DNA of 64,000 bases, from contig CBDCKN010000013.1 of NCBI GenBank assembly GCA_965218295.1, forward strand, positions 512,001 through 576,000, read 5' to 3'. The stretch comes from Longimicrobiales bacterium. GTDB taxonomy: Bacteria > Gemmatimonadota > Gemmatimonadetes > Longimicrobiales > Gaopeijiaceae. This document shows, piece by piece, positions 5,591 to 27,845 of the stretch (position 1 is the first letter of the stretch; every line of letters begins with the position of its first letter). The position numbers and the translations under genes were made by a program. The notes below the pieces were generated by a model. That model worked only from the letters and a program-made list of their open reading frames with translations, searched no databases and had not been told where the DNA came from.

Positions 5591-5857
5591 TCAATCGAAG
5601 AAATCGGTATGGGTTCCAGTCCGAACCAGGATGAGAGCATCGCCCCCCTGGTCCCAGACCAACAGCCAGTCCGGTTCGATGTGACATTCCCAGCAGGGAG
5701 ACCAGTCCCCGGTCAACCGATGCTTCCGATGTCGTGGGTCGAGAGGCTGATTCGACAGAAGTCGCTCCACGACACTCCAGAGCTTGTCGAGATCCTTGCC
5801 GCGCTTTCTGCCACGCTTGAGATCCTTCTCGAATCGCTTCGTGGTAAGCAGGCGCAT
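5591..5857 (-). CDS. yafQ: YafQ/RelE-family mRNA interferase toxin
   Basis: HRLTGDW, ECHIEPDWLLV, LVRTGTHTDFF. Confidence 0.9.
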   Translation of the reverse strand: MRLLTTKRFEKDLKRGRKRGKDLDKLWSVVERLLSNQPLDPRHRKHRLTGDWSPCWECHIEPDWLLVWDQGGDALILVRTGTHTDFFD

Positions 5858-5862
5858 TGGGA

Positions 5863-6120
5863 TCAACCGTGCCGGGCTTTGAGATCCTCCAGGCTGGTGT
5901 ATTCGGTGAGTCCCTCTCCGGTGTGGGCCTGCCGCAACGCTGCGATGGTCTCGGCATTGGGAATCTTCACAGCGAACGGCAAGCCGTGATGCAGCGTTAC
6001 CTGGCGATAGAACAGCGTGATCGCTGCGGTTGGCGACAAACCGAGCCCCGAGAAGACCTCTTCGGCCTGGCTCTTCAACTCCGGTTCAACGCGGGCCCGG
6101 ATCATTTCGGTCTTGGCCAT
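5863..6120 (-). CDS. dinJ: RelB/DinJ antitoxin
   Basis: MIRARVEPELK..AEEVFSGLGLS...GLPF..PNAETIAAL, with GGAGG RBS. Confidence 0.9.
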   Translation of the reverse strand: MAKTEMIRARVEPELKSQAEEVFSGLGLSPTAAITLFYRQVTLHHGLPFAVKIPNAETIAALRQAHTGEGLTEYTSLEDLKARHG

Positions 6121-6228
6121 TTTGGGCACCTCCCCGTCTTGTTTGCTAATAATGTACCCCAAACGGGGAACATATCAATAAAGTGACCTTTTCTCTCCAC
6201 GACATCCCCGTCTTGTCCGCACGGCGGG

Positions 6229-8221: not shown

Positions 8222-11200
8222 TTACGGCACAACAACTGGATCCCATCTCCATCCCGACCCCGACAGGGGGAGGGATGGGCGGACGTGTTGTACGATCTTG
8301 CGTATCGCCTCCAAGTCATCCAGTACATTCGTGCGGAAGCGCATCCATTTGCCGGAGATCGACAGCGCTTCGGGATCGCCTTCGCCGATGGAGATATGGC
8401 TCCGGACCCTGGCTTGCGGCGAGGCGGTGCGGTGCAGCCGCCAGAGCTCGCGGGCGTCGGCCCATGCGTTGCCGACGGCCGGGTAGCTCTCCAGCAGCCC
8501 CTCGACATGCTCGAGCACGTTGGGGGCCTCGGCCGCGAGCGTCTCGGGGTTGTCGAGGTAACGCCGCCAGAACTCCGCCCACCCTTCGCCGATCGACTGG
8601 TCGCTGATCCCCTGGGCCAGGTCCTGGAGCTCGCCGCGCACGGCGCCCGGAAGAGTGGCGAGCTGCGCGTTGTCGATCCCGCCCTTCGCCGTGGCCCCGA
8701 AGAGGAGCTTCTGCATGAGGTGGCCGTACTCGTGGCCGAGAGCGGGGACGTCGGACAACGAGACGGAGCGAACGACCTGGGCGCGCGGGTCTACCTGCGC
8801 GAGAGCCCTGCCGAAGATGCCGCGCTTTCGGACCTTGCCCTCGGTGACCTTCACGCCTTGGAGCGCCTGGTGGAGAGCCTTTTGCAGATCGCGCACGATC
8901 GTCATCGCCTTGGGCGCCTCGGTCGCCGTGCCTTCGGTGAACTCGCCGGCGCCGGCGAGCTGTTCCGAAAGCTGCGCGGTGGGGGCCAGCGGGAGAATGC
9001 CGCCCCCTCCTCTCGCTTCACGCACGCGCTCGGCCTCGGCCTCGTACTCCTTCTCGAGGCGCGCGACCTCTTTCTCCGCGTCGGGAACCCGGTCGGCCGC
9101 GGGCTGTCCCCGGGCTTTGATACGAAGGTGGCGGAGCTCGCGCTCGGCTATCGTAAGCTCTTCGGAGATTGTTACCAGGGACGGCTCGGTGGCCGGGTCG
9201 AACGGGGTCTGCTCGCGGGGAGCGAGCGGGTGGACGCCGGACGGGGGACCGCCGCTGTCTGCGTTGGGGTCGGTAACGCCGGTCCGCTCGACGAACTTCG
9301 CCCACGCGGTGTCGAGGAGCTGCTTTAGCTTGGCCTTCGCCGCCTTGCGCTCGTCGAGGGGGTTACTCTCGTCGCGGATGATCGCATAGAGCTTGTGAGA
9401 TTTTTTCTGTTGCTCGGCGATCTCCTTCGGCACGAGCTGAAACTCGACGGACAGCCGCCCGGTCGGGTCGACCAGTTGAATGTGGCGAGCCCGGTAGCCG
9501 CCCCGCGAGTTGTCCCACATGAAGTCGTCATCCGCGACCTCGCCCCATGGAGGCCTTTGCCAACCGAGCTCTTCGATCGCGGCGATGGCCTTCTCCGCAT
9601 CCTCGAGGGTGTCGATCGACATGCGGCCCCCGAGATAGTCGCCGATGATCGAGGGATCGTTCCCGCGTTGCCCCATCTTCTCGAAGAGGCGCTCGTCGCC
9701 CTTGACCCTGGCGCTCATGAGCTTCGCGCCGGGAACATCTCGCTGTACCCGGCGTATAACGTCACGGTAGGGTTGCGCGAGGTCGGCTGCTCTTCGCTTG
9801 AGTTCCTCGACGTCGCTGCTCTGCTGAACGATGTCCCACCCTCCGGGAGACTTGACGATGGGTAAGCTAAAAGTGCTTGGCGGTCCCTCCCTCGACGGTC
9901 GCGTAGTCGGTCGCTGGGTCGAGGACGAGGAGGCCGGCAGAGATTGGGTCGAGACCTGGCGCGGCCCCGAGCGGGGTTGGGAAGAGGGAGGCATGGATGC
10001 CGGTACCGTCATGGGCTCCCCCGAGCTCTCCCCGAAGGGGCTCCGGACCTTCGGCATCCCCGAAGACTCCTGAGGCGCCAGCCCGAGCATTTGCCGGAGC
10101 GCAGTGGCCGGATCGCCTCGTGGAGCGAGAGCGGCCTTTTTGGAGAAGATGCCCCGCGACTCTTCCGCCCCCGGGGCGGCGTAGCCGAAGAGATCGTCGC
10201 TCGCCCCGCCCCTGGTGAACGCTTCCGCCCGGTTCGCGTAGGTGCGGAAGGCGTCGCGCACGCTCCCCTTGCCGCTCTCCAGGAACTTCGCCATGTCGAC
10301 GGCGTGTTCGGAGGGTTGCCGGCGGTCGAAGTCGACCTGAGCGACCAGGTCGCCGATCGTCATGTCGCCGGCCCTCGCCGCGCTCAGTAGATCGACGGCC
10401 TCCCTGACGAGCGGACCGATCTCCCACCCGCCTCCGATGCGGTCCGCTCGGATGATGGCCGGCAGCGACGTGTCGAGCTTGCGGAGCACGGCGGGCGGCG
10501 CCCGGCCGATGACGTCCGGATCGCCCAAGGCCGTGGCGTAGAACATTCTCTCGATGAGCTGGCGGCCCTCCTCGGTGGCCGCCCCCGTCGCCGCGTCGGC
10601 GAACCGGGCCCGCTCGCCCTTCGTGATGACCGCGTCCTCGACGAGCTTGCCGAGAAAGTCCTTGCCGGCCTTCGTGCCCATGTAGGACCGGATCGTCGCG
10701 TCCGGATCGGCCGTGGAGGCGAAGTGGTCGAGAGCTCCCCGGGCTTCGCGGAACTGCACGGCCTTGCCCTTCGCCTCGCTCAAGGGATCCTTCGTCTTGC
10801 CGATCGGAGCGTCACTGCTCTCGTTGAGCGCTCGGAGCTCCTCGATGTTGGTGACGTCCACCTTCGGGTCGACGATCTGACGGAAGAGCACGGGTTTCGC
10901 GATGGAGGCGACCCGGGCCGGATCAATGCCGAGCTCGGCCGCCCGCCGCTCGACGCCTTGTTTGAGCTCGGCCGCTCCGGCCTCCGTCTCGTAGAGGCGC
11001 TGTTGTGCGATGAGCCGGCCGTTTCCCGCCACTACGATCCCGGCCGGCGCCGCGACGGGAGGTCCCTCGGCAACCGAGGACGTGGGGTCGAGCGCCCGCT
11101 CGACGTCGAAGCTCGAGACGATCTGTTCGGTGTGCTCGCGCGCTTGGCGGCCGCGGCGGCCGTGATAGGCACGGCCCTGGATCTCGGCCGGGAACTCCTC

Positions 11201-12442
11201 CGCGCCTCGCTGAGCGTAGTCGGACGTGTGGCTTGCCTTGAGCCGGTCCGCATCGGCCACGGTGTAGATGGTCTCGACCTTGCGGTCGTCGCCCGGGAAG
11301 ACGGACCGCTGCCGGCGTTTCGGGTCGATCGTCTCCGGAGCCTCCTCGACGACCCGCTCCCGAGCCCATGTGGGTGTTTCGGGAGTAACGGCGTCCGGTT
11401 CACGGATAGGCGGGATCGTTTCACCGGGAGACCGGATCGTTTCACGGACCGATTGAGGGTCAATCGACCCCTGTTCGGGAGGCAGCCCCCGCTCGCCCCG
11501 TATGGTCTCGATGGCGCCCTCGAGCTCCTGATCCCTGCGCTCGAAGACCGAGGGGCCGGGGCTCGCGAGATCGCCCTCTATGGCCTCGGGAGTTCGGGAG
11601 GTCTCCGGTAGGGTGTCCCACGGGTCCGTCGAGCGCTCGGGTGCCGTAGGGGCCTCCCGGGGGGCTTCCGTGCGCTCGGCCGGAGTGGCCCCCGTCTCGG
11701 TCGGAGCGGCCGTGCCCCCGGCGGCAATCCCTTTCGCCGTCTCGATGGCCCGCGAGAGGAGCGGAGGAGCTGTCCTCTCGGGGAGTCGGCCGGCAACGGC
11801 GTCGCCGCCGGCTCCGAGGAAGACGCCGGCAGCTCCACCGCGAATCGCCTCTTCCTTGATCCGGCCAACGTCGATGGGAGCGCCCGTGCCGATCGCGGCC
11901 GCGCCTTGCGAGACGAGCGACTGGCTCCCTTCCGCGAAGGTCTCCTCGGCGCCGCCCCGCACGGCTCCCCTGAGGAGCGGGCCGAGCCCTTGAGCGGCCC
12001 CCCCCTTGGCGAGAGCTCCTCCGATGCGCGCGGGCATCAGGATGTCGGCAGCGGCGTAGGGAACCGCTCCCCCGAGCACGAGGGCGTCCATGGCCGCCCC
12101 TTCGTCCATACCCGCGTCCTCGAGCTCGCCACGGATGTCCCCGACGCCCATCAGCCAGCCGGGCAGCGCCGCGCCGGCCATCGCGCCCAACGGTCCCGCC
12201 AGCAAAGCGCCCGCCGTGCCGCCGGCGATGGAGGGAACGGAGGTGGGGAGCGCTTGGCCCAGGTTCTCCGCGAGCCAGGTGACGGGAGCCTCGCGAAAGC
12301 CGGGGCTCTCCCACTCCTCGGCCAGGCGTTCGCCGCGCGCCTCCGCGGCGGCCTCCATGCGGCCGCCGATCCCCTCCGCCCCGAATTGCTCGAGCACGTT
12401 GCCGGCGAGCTCGGGAACGGTGGCGGAGGCTCCTCGCTTCAA
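8222..12442 (-). CDS. large polyvalent protein, truncated at both ends: ddrB-like ParB + RelA/SpoT synthetase + zincin-like metallopeptidase
   Basis: About 11283-10190: LKASH..FPAEIQGRAY..EGPPV..VVAGNGRL; about 9840-9295: RVKG..LFEK..IGDYLGGR..GGYRARHIQL..VEFQL..SHKLY; about 8900-8480: GHEYGH..EGWAEF; in-frame TAG at 12449-12451 just upstream. Confidence 0.8.
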   Translation of the reverse strand: MKRGASATVPELAGNVLEQFGAEGIGGRMEAAAEARGERLAEEWESPGFREAPVTWLAENLGQALPTSVPSIAGGTAGALLAGPLGAMAGAALPGWLMGVGDIRGELEDAGMDEGAAMDALVLGGAVPYAAADILMPARIGGALAKGGAAQGLGPLLRGAVRGGAEETFAEGSQSLVSQGAAAIGTGAPIDVGRIKEEAIRGGAAGVFLGAGGDAVAGRLPERTAPPLLSRAIETAKGIAAGGTAAPTETGATPAERTEAPREAPTAPERSTDPWDTLPETSRTPEAIEGDLASPGPSVFERRDQELEGAIETIRGERGLPPEQGSIDPQSVRETIRSPGETIPPIREPDAVTPETPTWARERVVEEAPETIDPKRRQRSVFPGDDRKVETIYTVADADRLKASHTSDYAQRGAEEFPAEIQGRAYHGRRGRQAREHTEQIVSSFDVERALDPTSSVAEGPPVAAPAGIVVAGNGRLIAQQRLYETEAGAAELKQGVERRAAELGIDPARVASIAKPVLFRQIVDPKVDVTNIEELRALNESSDAPIGKTKDPLSEAKGKAVQFREARGALDHFASTADPDATIRSYMGTKAGKDFLGKLVEDAVITKGERARFADAATGAATEEGRQLIERMFYATALGDPDVIGRAPPAVLRKLDTSLPAIIRADRIGGGWEIGPLVREAVDLLSAARAGDMTIGDLVAQVDFDRRQPSEHAVDMAKFLESGKGSVRDAFRTYANRAEAFTRGGASDDLFGYAAPGAEESRGIFSKKAALAPRGDPATALRQMLGLAPQESSGMPKVRSPFGESSGEPMTVPASMPPSSQPRSGPRQVSTQSLPASSSSTQRPTTRPSREGPPSTFSLPIVKSPGGWDIVQQSSDVEELKRRAADLAQPYRDVIRRVQRDVPGAKLMSARVKGDERLFEKMGQRGNDPSIIGDYLGGRMSIDTLEDAEKAIAAIEELGWQRPPWGEVADDDFMWDNSRGGYRARHIQLVDPTGRLSVEFQLVPKEIAEQQKKSHKLYAIIRDESNPLDERKAAKAKLKQLLDTAWAKFVERTGVTDPNADSGGPPSGVHPLAPREQTPFDPATEPSLVTISEELTIAERELRHLRIKARGQPAADRVPDAEKEVARLEKEYEAEAERVREARGGGGILPLAPTAQLSEQLAGAGEFTEGTATEAPKAMTIVRDLQKALHQALQGVKVTEGKVRKRGIFGRALAQVDPRAQVVRSVSLSDVPALGHEYGHLMQKLLFGATAKGGIDNAQLATLPGAVRGELQDLAQGISDQSIGEGWAEFWRRYLDNPETLAAEAPNVLEHVEGLLESYPAVGNAWADARELWRLHRTASPQARVRSHISIGEGDPEALSISGKWMRFRTNVLDDLEAIRKIVQHVRPSLPLSGSGWRWDPVVVP
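9858..10073 (+). CDS. 71-aa acidic Trp-rich protein nested antisense within the polyvalent gene (candidate antitoxin)
   Basis: GGGAG RBS at 9845-9849, ATG 9858, TGA 10071-10073; the host frame here reads as an S/P/T-rich shadow peptide. Confidence 0.6.
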   Translation: MGKLKVLGGPSLDGRVVGRWVEDEEAGRDWVETWRGPERGWEEGGMDAGTVMGSPELSPKGLRTFGIPEDS

Positions 12443-12976: not shown

Positions 12977-13402
12977 TCAGGCGCCGCACCTGCAATGGTG
13001 TTCGAAGCGTTCGAAGTCGCGGTCGTTCGTAAGAATGGTGCCGATGCCGTGCTCTCGGCAGAGCGCGGCACTCTGCGCGTCGAACATCAAGTTGCCGCGC
13101 GAATCCGCCTGGCGAGCGACCGCAATGAGAAGTTCGAGGAATTCCGGACCCGGACGGACAACCTCGCAGCTCGGAGCGTCGGCGATGCCCGCGATGAACG
13201 CGGTCGCCTGAGCCACGGTGGAAGGCGGATTGAACACGCGCCGATGCGTCACCACCCGCATGAATTCCGTAACGCAGAAGACCGGGAGAGCCCAGCGCTC
13301 TGCCCCCTCGGCCAGAGCGACGAGCCGCGAGGCCGCCGCGCCATGCAGTTCGGTCTCGCCACGGTGTGCGTAAATCAGAATGTTGGTGTCAACGGCAATC
13401 AC
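12977..13402 (-). CDS. vapC: VapC-family PIN-domain toxin
   Basis: IAVDTNILIYAH, EFMRVVTH, GNLMFDA, ILTNDRDF. Confidence 0.9.
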   Translation of the reverse strand: MIAVDTNILIYAHRGETELHGAAASRLVALAEGAERWALPVFCVTEFMRVVTHRRVFNPPSTVAQATAFIAGIADAPSCEVVRPGPEFLELLIAVARQADSRGNLMFDAQSAALCREHGIGTILTNDRDFERFEHHCRCGA

Positions 13403-13641
13403 GCGCGGTCGATCACGTCATAAAGCGCGTCCCGGTCGGAGATGTCGACATTGGGTGGCTCGTCCCCGGTCACGGTCTCCAACCGCAACCGGAAGGCCGG
13501 TTTCCTGCTACCCGCGTCCGTCAGTCGTGCACGCAGCGCATCCTCGACGAATCTCGTGAGCGTGATCCCGTCCCGTGCCGCCCGCCCCTTGGCCGAGCGC
13601 AGAACCTGATCGTTCAGATTGAGCGTGGTTTTCACGCGCAA
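13399..13641 (-). CDS. VapB-type RHH antitoxin
   Basis: KTTLNLNDQVLRSAKGRAA...LTRFVEDALR...VDISDRDALYD; overlaps vapC start. Confidence 0.85.
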   Translation of the reverse strand: MRVKTTLNLNDQVLRSAKGRAARDGITLTRFVEDALRARLTDAGSRKPAFRLRLETVTGDEPPNVDISDRDALYDVIDRA

Positions 13642-15949: not shown

Positions 15950-16500
15950 GAATGGCTGCTCGCGGGGAGCGAGCGGGTGGACGCCGGGGGGGTGCTACTC
16001 CTTCTCGGGTCTCGGGAAGCTCAGGCGATGGACTATCCCGGTCGCCTTGTCGAAATCGAACACCCCGTTGGTCTCGAAGTCCTCGTCCTGTTCAGATGCC
16101 TCGTGGACGGGTAGCCGCCGGGCGGCAGCGTCTTCCTCTCGGGTTGTTTGTCTTTGGGCATTCGAGCCTTCCTCGACGAGGCGTGGCGGCTGGCCGAACT
16201 CGACGCCCCTGGTCCAGCCACGTGAATCTACTGACGCCCCAGAGTGTGTTTTCAACTCCTCGAAAGCCGTCTGCGGGTTGGTCCCCATGACGTCGAGCGT
16301 ATAGATGGGGTCGACGAACCTGCCCGAGCCGAGGAACCGCGAGACGGTGCGGCCGGCCGCGAGCATCGGCGCCAGGTCGACCAGGTACAGGTCCGTGACG
16401 TAGCCGGCCCGCATCGAGCACGTCGAGGAGGTCCTGCACGGGGCCCGTTGAAGCTGCCGACCCAGGGGGGAACGACGACGTTGTCGCTGTTGGCCGGGAT
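15950..16500 (-). pseudogene. Zeta-toxin-like P-loop kinase C-terminal half, followed by polyvalent-protein linker
   Basis: DNVVVP.VGS / QDLLDVL / AGYVTDLYLVDL...RTVSRFLGSGRFVDPIYTLDVMGTNP.TAFEELK, then GVHPLAPREQ as in the 1406-aa protein; Walker A not present. Confidence 0.6.
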
Positions 16501-23873: not shown

Positions 23874-26800
23874 CTAGTCCTCTTGCGGATCGATGGCCAG
23901 ATCCACCCCATCTGCCACCAAGGCCAGAGTACCATCGTCGTTCACACCGAAAGCGAAGACGGTACCGTCGATGTCGGTGTCAGCGTCAGGGGTGAAGGCA
24001 TCTTCAACAAGTGTGAAGAGGTCATTCCCCGTAACGTCAAGTTCATACGTCCACGTACGGGTAGTGACGCCGCCGGTGGTGGTGCTCGAAGAAGCCGCGC
24101 CTATATCTGAATCGATCAGCCGTAGATCACCACCCGATGTACCCACCCTGTAGTAGAAGTCCACGCGGGAGAATGGGTTCGCGAATGTTGACGCGGTCTT
24201 ACTCGCCACAGCCTCCAAAGTGATGCTCTCATCGGTGCCCATCTCGCAGTCATCGCCACCGTCCTCAATGCCCTCCGCGCAGATGACAGGTTCGTCGCCT
24301 GTACTAGCTACGAACCTGAAATCATCCACGGTGAAATCTTCGATGTCAGTCACTGTGGGAGCTGCGGTTGCCAATCCACCCTCGGTGTTATAAGCACCCG
24401 TCTGATCACGCGCCTTCAGATTCACGCTATTAAGGTTGGTCGCGGTCGAAGCAACCGCACCATCGGCATTAGTCGCGGCCTGCAATCGCAGGACCGTAGT
24501 GATCGGCGTGTTGACGACGTAATTCGTGTGGGTCAAGTCGTCGGCATTGAACTCGTCGACCACTGTGTGCGCGCTACCCAGTCTCACCATAGGACTGGTG
24601 ATACCGGCCACCGTGGCGGAGAACCCTACAGTCCAGTAGTAGTCCCTGATCGACAGGTCGTCGCTCAGGAAGGCGGAAGCCGCGAACGAATTGGTGTTGA
24701 TCGTTGCCGGGATAGACGGGCTTCCCACTGTCGCCCCCATGTTGTCCCGAACGACCGTGCGGCTTATTGGCTCCGAAGAGTTCCCCGCCTTGTCTACTGC
24801 GGAGGCCGTCAGTGTGTAGTAGGCCGCATCTGTTAGATCCGCCAGATTCATCGTACTGGTGCCAGAGATCCAGACGTTATCCACCGTGGCAGTGGTTTCT
24901 TCTGGGTCTTCTGCTGGGAGATCCGCCTCATCGTCATCGGAGCGCGATCGAACTCGTAGATTAGCACTGACCGGCCCATTCGTGCGTGCACCGGAGTTCC
25001 CTATGGAGCCGCCATCGGACACCGACATCGTGAATTCTCCGGCAACTGTCACGGTGGTAATTCTTGCCTTTTCTTCCAGGCCGCCGTCGAACTCAATCTC
25101 CGGCGCGGTTATGTCCACGCCAGCCCTGAGCGCCACTGGCATCGCCACGGTTGCTAGTGCGGCGATTTCCTCTGCCTTTTCTTCGTCGGTTCCGGATCCG
25201 GTGTTAATCTCATCGACTGCGGTCTGGTAATCATCGACTGCGGTCTCGTAAGCTGCGGCGGTCATGCACTCAGCCTCTTCCTCCGGCAGCGCAGACTCGT
25301 TACCAAGGAGGTCCGTGGCGGACGCGATGAAGCAGTAGGCGTCAGCCATAGACGGACCTGGCAATGCTGAGGAACGACTTGCTTCCAGTGCCGCATCTAC
25401 GGTTGCGGGCTTAGTTGAAGAGGATCTCAACCAAGCGGTGTACCCACCCCCGCCTCCGCCTGCGGCACCGTAAGTAAGCCACCCATCTTCGTTATCATCC
25501 GCATTGTACTCATCCGTCAGGTCAACCCCGTCATTGATCCAGCCCTCCTCGCGGCCGTTGACGTTCGGGTTGAACATCGGTGCGGTTGGGCCTTTATAGT
25601 CCAGCTGGACCGAGAAGACTTCGTCGCCTGCATTTAGAGTCTCTACCTTTGCAGCCCCTATGCTGAAGATATCGATGTCAACTGGTCCTTCGTACCCATC
25701 ACAGTTCGGAGAAAAGTCGTATGGAGCCGCGTCAGCAGAGGCAGCCTTACTATCTGGCCCACAGAATCCCGCCCCCAGCGTCACCGACGCGACGGAGCGT
25801 CCCGAGTACACGACTGGAAACGCCGTAAGGTCGAACCCGGCACCTGGGCCACCATACCAATATCCGCCGTCCTCGCCTAACACGGGCAGCCTAGTCAGAC
25901 CATTCACAGCCACGTGCACGCCGTCCGTGTTCGCGAATTCGACCTCCATCCGGTTCGAAAAGACTTCCTCCGTGCTGCCCGAGACCGTGAGTCCCGCCAC
26001 TATGTTGTAGGGGCCGTTCGGGTAAGCCGGGTCTCCCGTTACCGGATCGTATTCGTCCGTGTCGAACCCTAGGGTGAATTCGAATACCTGCTGCTGCTGC
26101 TGCTGCGCCGCCTGAGCCTCCTTCTCGGCGGGCTCGGCGGGCGCGGGTGCGAGGCCGAAGGGCTGGGTGGCCACGACCTCACCATCCACGTAGAGGCTCA
26201 ACTGTTCGAACCTCTGCTCGCCTCGCTCTACAGAGACCTTCACGGTGAGGCGGCCCGTATCATCATCGTCGGACTCGAAGCTAACGTCGCTAATGAGGAC
26301 AAACGCCTCGTCGGCCTCGGCGTCCTCGGCCTCGGCCTTGAATGAGGCGTTGGCGATCTCGCCCGCGACCACGGTTACGGGACGTGAGGTGACGGTGAAC
26401 TCATGGTCGCCGAAGTCCGAAATCGTCACCGTGTAGTCGCCGGCCTCTACTTCGGGCAACTCGTAGTCACCTTCCGTGTCGGAGGTACCAGACACGGTCA
26501 CACCGTCCTCACCCTCACCCGTACCGACGGCGGTCACCGTCGCCACGACGCCCTCACCTCCGGCCGTGACGACTTCACCACTGATGCTCCCCGTCGTGAC
26601 TTCGGGCTCGGGCGGCTCGGCCTCGGCCTCGGCCTCGAATGAGGCATTGGCGATCTCGCCCGCGACCACGGTTACGGGACGTGAGGTGACGGTGAACTCA
26701 TGGTCGCCGAAGTCCGAAATCGTCACCGTGTAGTCGCCGGCCTCTACTTCGGGCAACTCGTAGTCACCTTCCGTGTCGGAGGTACCAGACACGGTCACAC

Positions 26801-27845
26801 CGTCCTCACCCTCACCCGTACCGACGGCGGTCACCGTCGCCACGACGCCCTCACCTCCGGCGGTGAGGACGGTACCGCTGATGCTCCCCGTCGTGACTTC
26901 GGGCTCGGGCGGCTCGGCCTCGGCCTCGGCCTCGAATGAGGCGTTGGCGATCTCGCCCGCGACCACGGTTACGGGACGTGAGGTGACGGTGAACTCATGG
27001 TCGCCGAAGTCCGAAATCGTCACCGTGTAGTCGCCGGCCTCTACTTCGGGCAACTCGTAGTCACCTTCCGTGTCGGAGGTACCAGACACGGTCACACCGT
27101 CCTCACCCGTACCGACGGCGGTCACCGTCGCCACGACGCCCTCACCTCCGGCGGTGAGGACGGTACCGCTGATGCTCCCCGTCGTGACTTCGGGCTCGGG
27201 CACGGCCTCGGCGGTGAACGCGACGGGGGGGGCACTCTGGCCCACACCCACGGTTACGTCACGTGAGGTGACGGTGAACTCATGGTCGCCGAAGTCCGAA
27301 ATCGTCACGTGGTAGGTGCCGGCACGCAGGCCGGGCAGGATGAAGTCACCGTCCGTGCCGGAGGTGCCGATCACCGCCTCCTCACTCATGAGCATGCCCC
27401 CACCGGTGGCGGTCACCGTCGCCACGACGCCCTCACCTCCGGCGGTGAGGACGGTACCGCTGATGTCCGACGTGCGGATGTAGTTTCCGCTGAAGTCGGC
27501 GGTGGCCGTCTGGCCACTCGTGGTGATGGTCACGACCTTGGCCGTCTCGACGAAGGCCACTTCGGCGGGAGCACCGCTGATCTGTACACCGTGCGTCCCA
27601 GCGGGGACGTTGTCGAACGAGTAGCCACCGCTACTTCCCGTCGTTTCCGACTGCGGACCGGAGCCCACCAGGTTGACGCTCACTCCCGGCAACCCAGAAC
27701 CCTCGACGGACACCGTGCCACTCACGGTTCCGACGATGGGCGCCGGCGCGACCGGCGTCACGGGGGTGCCTCCGTCGTCGTCATCGCAAGCGACCACCAA
27801 GGCACCTGTGAGTAACGCGACAGTTGCGAATCGAAGCAACTTCAT
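23874..27845 (-). CDS. large acidic surface lipoprotein with repeated carboxypeptidase-regulatory-like (prealbumin-fold) and Ig-like domains
   Basis: Lipobox LVVAC; five G.ISG.V...T...G.Y.....AG.Y.V repeats; DITAP / AVDKAGN motifs. Confidence 0.85.
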   Translation of the reverse strand: MKLLRFATVALLTGALVVACDDDDGGTPVTPVAPAPIVGTVSGTVSVEGSGLPGVSVNLVGSGPQSETTGSSGGYSFDNVPAGTHGVQISGAPAEVAFVETAKVVTITTSGQTATADFSGNYIRTSDISGTVLTAGGEGVVATVTATGGGMLMSEEAVIGTSGTDGDFILPGLRAGTYHVTISDFGDHEFTVTSRDVTVGVGQSAPPVAFTAEAVPEPEVTTGSISGTVLTAGGEGVVATVTAVGTGEDGVTVSGTSDTEGDYELPEVEAGDYTVTISDFGDHEFTVTSRPVTVVAGEIANASFEAEAEAEPPEPEVTTGSISGTVLTAGGEGVVATVTAVGTGEGEDGVTVSGTSDTEGDYELPEVEAGDYTVTISDFGDHEFTVTSRPVTVVAGEIANASFEAEAEAEPPEPEVTTGSISGEVVTAGGEGVVATVTAVGTGEGEDGVTVSGTSDTEGDYELPEVEAGDYTVTISDFGDHEFTVTSRPVTVVAGEIANASFKAEAEDAEADEAFVLISDVSFESDDDDTGRLTVKVSVERGEQRFEQLSLYVDGEVVATQPFGLAPAPAEPAEKEAQAAQQQQQQVFEFTLGFDTDEYDPVTGDPAYPNGPYNIVAGLTVSGSTEEVFSNRMEVEFANTDGVHVAVNGLTRLPVLGEDGGYWYGGPGAGFDLTAFPVVYSGRSVASVTLGAGFCGPDSKAASADAAPYDFSPNCDGYEGPVDIDIFSIGAAKVETLNAGDEVFSVQLDYKGPTAPMFNPNVNGREEGWINDGVDLTDEYNADDNEDGWLTYGAAGGGGGGYTAWLRSSSTKPATVDAALEASRSSALPGPSMADAYCFIASATDLLGNESALPEEEAECMTAAAYETAVDDYQTAVDEINTGSGTDEEKAEEIAALATVAMPVALRAGVDITAPEIEFDGGLEEKARITTVTVAGEFTMSVSDGGSIGNSGARTNGPVSANLRVRSRSDDDEADLPAEDPEETTATVDNVWISGTSTMNLADLTDAAYYTLTASAVDKAGNSSEPISRTVVRDNMGATVGSPSIPATINTNSFAASAFLSDDLSIRDYYWTVGFSATVAGITSPMVRLGSAHTVVDEFNADDLTHTNYVVNTPITTVLRLQAATNADGAVASTATNLNSVNLKARDQTGAYNTEGGLATAAPTVTDIEDFTVDDFRFVASTGDEPVICAEGIEDGGDDCEMGTDESITLEAVASKTASTFANPFSRVDFYYRVGTSGGDLRLIDSDIGAASSSTTTGGVTTRTWTYELDVTGNDLFTLVEDAFTPDADTDIDGTVFAFGVNDDGTLALVADGVDLAIDPQED
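26320..27200 (-). repeat. three near-identical ~297-bp intragenic tandem repeats
   Basis: Identical shadow ORFs recur at 26403, 26700 and 26997; one unit lacks 6 bp. Confidence 0.95.

Follow-up and report, generated by a model that had tools for sequence, protein, structure and literature searches.

A conserved small gene nested antisense within a phage-type polyvalent gene as a candidate immunity gene of the adjoining alarmone synthetase domain

Introduction

Polyvalent proteins with RelA/SpoT domains, the antitoxins of toxSAS and embedded antisense genes are each already known; the literature compared here includes PMC5512222, PMC7229694, PMC12691689, PMC11699363, PMC3482391 and PMC8850804. 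The window analysed in this study, a stretch of 64,000 nucleotides from a Longimicrobiales bacterium, holds a polyvalent gene in which a small open reading frame on the opposite strand abuts a RelA/SpoT domain. This raises the question whether the small frame is a gene in its own right and, if so, what such a gene might do for the domain next to it. New here are an unnamed protein family and the unusual nested gene architecture of a presumptive toxin-immunity pair.

Results

The small gene and its host

The features that matter for the argument are the following.

8222..12442, minus strand: host gene, a phage-type polyvalent protein fragment of 1406 aa (P0002) with an S/P/T-rich linker at residues 790-862 (open ORF, Pfam, alignment)
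10877..11290, minus strand: ddrB-like ParB domain, host residues 385-522 (Pfam PF18763, E 5e-14)
9248..9859, minus strand: RelA/SpoT small alarmone synthetase domain, residues 862-1065 (profile, fold, motifs)
8222..8278, minus strand: non-homologous C-terminal tail past the truncation point (no similarity to P0021 beyond residue 1388; the tail recurs elsewhere on the contig)
9858..10073, plus strand: nested antisense gene of 71 aa (P0001), from an unnamed family and predicted to give immunity to the synthetase next to it (codon signature, homologs, selection)
9845..9849, plus strand: Shine-Dalgarno-like (SD) GGGAG, 8 nt upstream of the ATG and within the opening codons of the synthetase domain (motif enrichment at starts)
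9807..9835, plus strand: site of a sigma70-like -35/17 nt/-10 promoter in relatives, degenerate here (6/12 matches, equal to expectation)

The host ORF (8222-12442, minus strand) is uninterrupted across the small gene. Its product has the make-up of the polyvalent class, being large and multidomain with DdrB-ParB and RelA/SpoT domains, and LPD38 is present in its 2339-aa relative P0021 (ddrB-ParB, RelA/SpoT, LPD38). P0002 aligns with P0021 at 48% until residue 1388 and ends about 800 residues short of it; judged from this alignment the host gene of the window is a C-terminally truncated remnant, a trait that the earlier sequence-only reading had omitted.

The small ORF starts with an ATG at 9858, at host residue 862, and has 71 open codons followed by a TGA at 10071-10073 on the plus strand. 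An alternative in-frame ATG at 9831 would give an 80-aa variant; eight close relatives (65-72 aa) start at or after the equivalent of 9858. The sequence-only reading had described the ORF with GGGAG 8 nt before the ATG and third codon positions common to both frames, and the coordinates bear this out (9845-9849 and 9858, with the ORF covering host residues 790-862). Its claim that the start lies within about 20 bp of the start of the domain holds when the domain is delimited by conservation, as homology of the synthetase to its relatives begins at about residues 866-871 against 862 for the ATG, and fails when it is delimited by the Pfam match, which begins at residue 912.

An open antisense frame of 71 codons is by itself unremarkable, as it occurs in 1688 of the 7424 windows of 71 codons that were taken from 1242 long ORFs of this genome. 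Scored by a codon model that was trained on the genome, the overlap has a log-likelihood of -21.5 in the host frame and +23.9 in the antisense frame, and a flip equally extreme is found in only 6 of these 7424 background windows. It is also the sole inversion of the codon signature along the host gene. These data confirm the observation of the sequence-only reading. One contig of run X1, which may be the source sample, is identical across 9211-10711.

These results, together with the homologs described below, indicate that the small gene at 9858..10073 is a conserved protein-coding gene nested in the polyvalent gene. It had been suggested that gene callers would discard such an ORF. This applies to the copy in the window and to the nested copy at locus L050, both of which are missing from a protein collection that contains the host protein, but not to the family at large, of which 131 homologs were called. 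The promoter position of the window's own copy scores 6/12, and since the host gene is truncated and no promoter can be recognised, the nested copy in the window may be silent.

An unnamed family of small proteins

Direct searches with the small protein returned eight called proteins (8/8 candidates) of 65-72 aa and 63-83% identity, and a profile of 30 sequences found the 131 called homologs among 1182 candidates. Family members are 64-90 aa long, W41 is the sole invariant residue among 49 family sequences, and among the 120 matches listed of the 131 homologs none has a name beyond "hypothetical". That the gene family is real can be regarded as almost certain.

From nine sequences, AlphaFold2 predicts a compact fold of four strands with two short helices (pLDDT 90.4), four of the five models above 87 and one at 49.7. 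The topology bears, to our eye, some resemblance to that of Tis1, for which the fold searches gave no confirmation. Neither a Pfam or PHROG family nor a PDB sequence match was found for the small protein. Foldseek against the PDB gave no match at E 1e-3, the best Z in VIA was 3.6, BFVD gave none, and Tis1 was not among the listed fold rows or the profile hits; such blanks show neither a new fold nor the exclusion of Tis1. In the ESM Atlas there were either no hits or unnamed clusters under 0.8, known antitoxins showed no sequence link, and the small protein was found neither in 60 relatives with the queries used nor in a single-protein pattern scan of viral contigs. A reciprocal scan by the small-protein motif yielded seven hits, two of them family members on contigs already in the set, both beside a synthetase, and five due to chance. 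Locus L002 also proved to be a chance match and was dropped.

A free-standing family member without a synthetase adjoins an insertion sequence in L003/L004. This orphan (L003:1924-2316 and its L004 counterpart) has a long basic tail, and another small gene of unknown kind follows it.

The adjoining synthetase domain

The domain that follows the overlap is, by profile and predicted fold, a small alarmone synthetase. The Pfam match (PF04607, E 7.6e-4) is below the curated cut-off; profile hits to RelP/RelQ reach E 8e-14, and the AlphaFold2 model (pLDDT 93.6) matches RelP/RelQ (E 4e-7 to 7e-6) and Tas1 (7e-5) in Foldseek, as well as FaRel2 and CapRel. The catalytic motifs RxK..K, D..R, GY..H and ExQ are present and all eight motif residues checked are intact (host R912, K914, K922, D935, R940, Y983, H987 and E1000). 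The domain is predicted to be toxic. With the queries used the synthetase had no match in 400 genomes of the phylum, nor in annotated phages and plasmids, bar one weak unannotated hit, and no cultured phage carrying a synthetase of this type was found among the annotated phages searched.

The nested layout is conserved and the antisense frame is under selection

Homologs were collected by phmmer with the synthetase alone, and the best 150 of the 282 hits were analysed along with six earlier proteins. Where there was room upstream, a shadow-like segment (score above 5) lay directly before the domain in 65 of 128 homologs, compared with 1 of 98 after the domain and 18 of 3319 background windows. 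In P0020, which has two tandem synthetase domains, the segment stands before the first alone; in P0090, P0100 and P0101 it follows the synthetase at the protein level instead of preceding it.

A scan of viral contigs by synthetase motif gave 41 loci, all of them synthetases, of which 24 remained after dereplication. A same-frame antisense ORF that starts from -2 to +2 codons from the start of the domain was present in 20 of the 24, the exceptions being L009, L020, L044 and L036; an antisense frame that stays open in homologous loci is what the sequence-only reading had called for. The nested viral ORFs encode 64-117 aa, start with ATG in 19 cases and GTG in one, and are found at a locus GC of 0.31-0.68.

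Selection on the antisense frame can be read from host-silent positions, as the base before a host Gln or His codon decides between Trp, Cys and a stop in the antisense frame. At the free sites of the 20 viral loci and the window's locus, conditional on there being no stop and with seven forced sites left out, the antisense codon is Trp at 36 of 42 against 19.6 expected from host codon usage. The preference is seen in low-GC loci (13/13, 4.8 expected) and in high-GC loci (23/29, 14.8 expected). An SD-like motif precedes 13 of 21 chosen starts against 23 of 289 other ATGs of the antisense frames, most low-GC nested loci being without one. With the -35/17 nt/-10 register kept fixed, 13 of 25 nested loci have promoter-like boxes that match at 9 or more of 12 positions, where 1.8 loci would be expected; the control set (0/13) is a weak one, its expectation also being 0.0 and some of its anchors misplaced. 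Because the loci are related and both registers, that of the start and that of the promoter, were picked with the data in view, none of these counts is a formal p-value. Rare ATA codons crowd the first strand of the synthetase (18 of 31 Ile codons against 157 of 850 elsewhere) because ATA spells the -10 box on the other strand. The distances of the small protein and the synthetase correlate (Mantel rho 0.68, 29 pairs), as expected from linkage, and this is not counted as evidence.

Taken together, the open frame, the fixed start, the synonymous choice and the SD- and promoter-like signals show, as far as comparison of homologous loci can, that the antisense gene is under selection of its own, as had been proposed. 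The second proposal, that of a portable module, likewise gains from the homologs: the segment and the synthetase occur together in proteins with ddrB-ParB (before or after), SNF2, RadC, ART-PolyVal or LPD38, and such comparison shows a cassette that is portable across host architectures and GC contents.

The family as a downstream gene, and loci without a member

Nine genome loci that were fetched later served as a held-out set. The synthetase is C-terminal in seven of the nine, and there the same family is found as a same-strand downstream gene (L048, L049 and L051-L055), 42-127 nt after the host stop, with a purine-rich site of its own and 41-72 bits with the earlier profile. Diverged copies stand in tandem after the C-terminal synthetase in two of these loci, three in L054 (28-904) and two in L055 (2184-2814). 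Of the remaining two, L050 has an internal synthetase and the nested layout (1/9), and L047, where the synthetase match is limited to the second half, has no family member. NCBI nr lists one copy of the tandem arrays (L054/L055) as a hypothetical protein. Besides its intact downstream copy, L049 has a 44-codon antisense ORF that begins at the nested start position and may be what is left of a decayed nested copy.

One more viral scan yielded 17 loci, of which three are not synthetases and eight lie on contigs already in the set; the rest comprise four nested loci (three distinct) and two without a member. No locus came out of a viral scan in which the spacer was longer. In total, 31 of 38 distinct loci have a family member, nested in 24 and downstream in seven, and seven have none in the DNA examined; a small partner gene is conserved beside the synthetase. 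On unrooted trees the layout changes twice, and either the nested or the downstream form may be the ancestral one.

Four of the seven loci without a member have intact motifs (L009, L020, L044 and L036). They are low-GC phage loci with a C-terminal synthetase and no family member within 1.3 kb, and in L009, L020 and L044 a convergent ORF of 51-52 codons overlaps the host stop. Among 131 classable host proteins, 80 have the segment (73 of them motif-intact) and 51 do not (17 intact); two or more motif changes are found in 32 of these 51, an association that rests largely on one clade of 38 rows and is close to one event. Ten hosts have an internal intact synthetase and no segment. In the clade with altered motifs, which has no nested gene (P0128, P0133, P0139, P0146, P0151 and P0140) five of six proteins checked have a 2H phosphoesterase, or else there is a GGDEF domain, and one protein with the 2H phosphoesterase also matches Acb1. 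These altered synthetases may serve as a sponge for nucleotide signals or be an enzyme with a changed activity.

Discussion

A proposed immunity role

We consider it probable, at about three chances in four, that the nested gene represents a new toxSAS immunity family whose gene lies inside the toxin's own ORF and whose product likely binds the synthetase and silences it. toxSAS, Apk1 and Apk2 are each flanked by small non-enzymatic binders in the main texts that describe them (PMC7229694, PMC12226406, PMC10083569). The immunity reading is drawn because a small gene after a C-terminal toxin domain, with tandem spares and orphan copies, is the pattern of immunity genes (PMC3482391, PMC10083569, PMC12226406, as far as their main texts go), and where the synthetase is C-terminal the downstream gene and its tandem copies lend the antitoxin role strong support from genomic context. 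It is somewhat likelier than an even chance that the loci are examples of unannotated, widespread phage toxin-immunity cassettes, in which the immunity gene is antisense in the toxin polyprotein and the opening codons of the domain contain the promoter, SD and start of that gene.

The small protein would bind the synthetase and keep it inactive in the cell that makes the large protein, and the host sigma70 polymerase would transcribe its gene from the promoter in the first codons of the synthetase. For polyvalent proteins an alarmone-like response on infection has been proposed in the main text of PMC5512222, and, judged at the level of that family, the large protein would be packaged and delivered with the virion without the small protein. 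The synthetase would then act briefly in the next host, by either alarmone synthesis or tRNA pyrophosphorylation, until host polymerase reads the embedded promoter and the antidote is made from the incoming DNA. Nesting would be a solution to a problem of layout, that of an internal toxin domain without a free downstream slot, and with the promoter, SD and start inside the codons of the domain the antidote would travel with the domain in shuffling.

It is unlikely, with perhaps the odds of an outsider, that the small protein is a true partner which does not inhibit the synthetase, such as an activator, a chaperone, a packaging or targeting factor, or a sensor gating some anti-phage activity. 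In its favour all the genetic evidence gives coupling and not the sign of the effect, loss alongside altered active sites would suit any partner, and a sequence link to known antitoxins is absent. On the other hand, diverged copies in tandem and the orphan of L003/L004 next to an insertion sequence follow the pattern of immunity genes (PMC3482391, main text), and a promoter of host type that does not depend on the large gene would suit pre-emptive protection.

Considerably less probable is a once-divergent gene pair that was captured by read-through, with the small gene as a fading relic without a present role. The head-to-head geometry would fit, as would the host gene of the window, truncated, in a decayed mobile island and without a promoter, and the short 44-codon antisense ORF upstream of an intact downstream copy in L049. 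Against it, frame, start, Trp codons and promoter are kept though the synthetases are only 20-36% identical to that of the window, and a relic should have acquired stops, above all in loci of 31-38% GC; for the family, these patterns already largely refute it. The chance is slightly smaller again that the antisense transcript is the working agent, by type I-like silencing or transcriptional interference, and the protein secondary. A promoter directed against the mRNA of the large gene is indeed seen in 13/25 nested loci, but neither selection on the reading frame and its tryptophan codons nor the persistence of the family as a same-strand downstream gene, which makes no antisense RNA, is accounted for. 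Least probable of all is that there is no second gene and that the antisense ORF is a by-product of a conserved low-complexity host linker. Such frames are common (1688/7424) and, given the host protein, an open frame with a start has a probability of 0.33 at the window's locus alone, but host-synonymous positions follow the antisense protein, and free-standing sense genes of the identical family with their own SD refute it.

If the immunity reading is true, the cassette cannot enter a new polyvalent protein minus its antidote, and an injected alarmone synthetase has a built-in off switch that is expressed by the victim's own polymerase. It would further be a natural, ancient whole gene nested in antisense with a clear reason for the overlap; to our knowledge, well-supported bacterial genes of this kind are few and mostly young. 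A candidate antidote would make the RelA/SpoT domains of polyvalent proteins clonable and testable, and the toxSAS field would gain an unnamed candidate inhibitor family. More generally, "disordered S/P/T-rich linkers" of giant phage proteins can be shadows of hidden genes, and such genes are invisible to neighbourhood tools that depend on annotation.

Comparison with known systems

The toxSAS systems (FaRel2/ATfaRel2, PhRel/Gp30, CapRel and PhRel2; PMC7229694, PMC11782079) share with the present loci a synthetase with intact motifs, a small non-enzymatic protein and an association with phages. In the main texts they are operons of two or three genes or fusions, whereas in the present loci the synthetase forms one domain of a protein of 1000-4500 aa, with its partner nested antisense; the co-directional two-gene operon is absent at the window and the other nested loci and present in seven relatives. 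ATfaRel2 has no sequence match to the small protein, and ATfaRel2 and CapRel are not among its listed fold matches (best Z 3.6). The YXXY inhibition motif of ATfaRel2/CapRel described in the main text of PMC11782079 is absent from P0001, and inhibition by YXXY cannot apply to this protein because it is without any tyrosine.

Apk2 (MuF-fused) with IapK/BcTis1 and Aph1, and Apk1/Tas1 with Tis1, are closer in one respect, as in the main texts a phage synthetase on a larger delivered protein is followed by its immunity gene (PMC12226406, PMC10083569), a layout that exactly matches loci L048, L049 and L051-L055. The motifs differ, LGGR / GYRAxH / ExQLV here against the Syn2-4 signatures RYT / GxN / YH in Apk2 (PMC12226406, main text). 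Apk2 has an N-terminal MuF, whereas Pfam found ddrB-ParB and no MuF or PAAR here, and in contrast to Apk2 systems no hydrolase gene was noticed and most loci are nested.

The host architecture is that of the polyvalent RelA/SpoT, DdrB-ParB and LPD38 proteins of PMC5512222, in the main text of which "antisense" and "opposite strand" do not occur and no immunity gene is named for the RelA/SpoT domain. Antisense-embedded coding ORFs under purifying selection are likewise described in Pseudomonas aeruginosa, as olg1 and olg2 (PMC8850804), but these are young, genus-restricted overprints, whereas the family described here is old and also free-standing, with the host frame as the apparent by-product.

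The immunity genes of pore-forming colicins lie on the opposite strand with their own promoter, beside the toxin ORF. They thus share strand and promoter with the nested genes, but are not inside the toxin ORF as here.

The sequence-only reading had known of no description of a toxin gene with its immunity gene nested antisense, and the literature search found none either, in a body of papers from which subscription journals are mostly absent, a result that does not prove that none exists; the word "antisense" does not appear in the main text of PMC11782079, PMC7229694 and PMC12691689 or in the part of PMC3482391 that was covered.

The setting of the host gene

On its two sides the host gene has as neighbours a ParA-like gene, a gene for a PIN toxin, pieces of integrase and insertion sequences, and we read this neighbourhood as a probable decayed mobile island. 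The last 22 host codons (window 8222-8287) recur outside the window (G000 C13:506804-506869), and a 37-nt piece at 9209-9245 recurs at 15956-15992; these recurrences suggest recombination junctions in the island. At about 80% identity, the closest relatives of the host protein (P0004, P0005, P0006 and P0007) are likewise fragments, each with an end unrelated to the others, as if the element had been decaying repeatedly in related hosts with the overlap region surviving.

Two small gene pairs that resemble toxin-antitoxin pairs flank the remnant (window 5594-6122 and 12977-13630). One consists of a PIN-domain gene and a short upstream ORF, and the other is presumably similar to DinJ/YafQ, judged by eye. 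Further along, window 23874-27845 encodes a 1323-aa protein with carboxypeptidase-regulatory repeats, in which four tandem repeats of 285-297 nt lie at 26321-27496.
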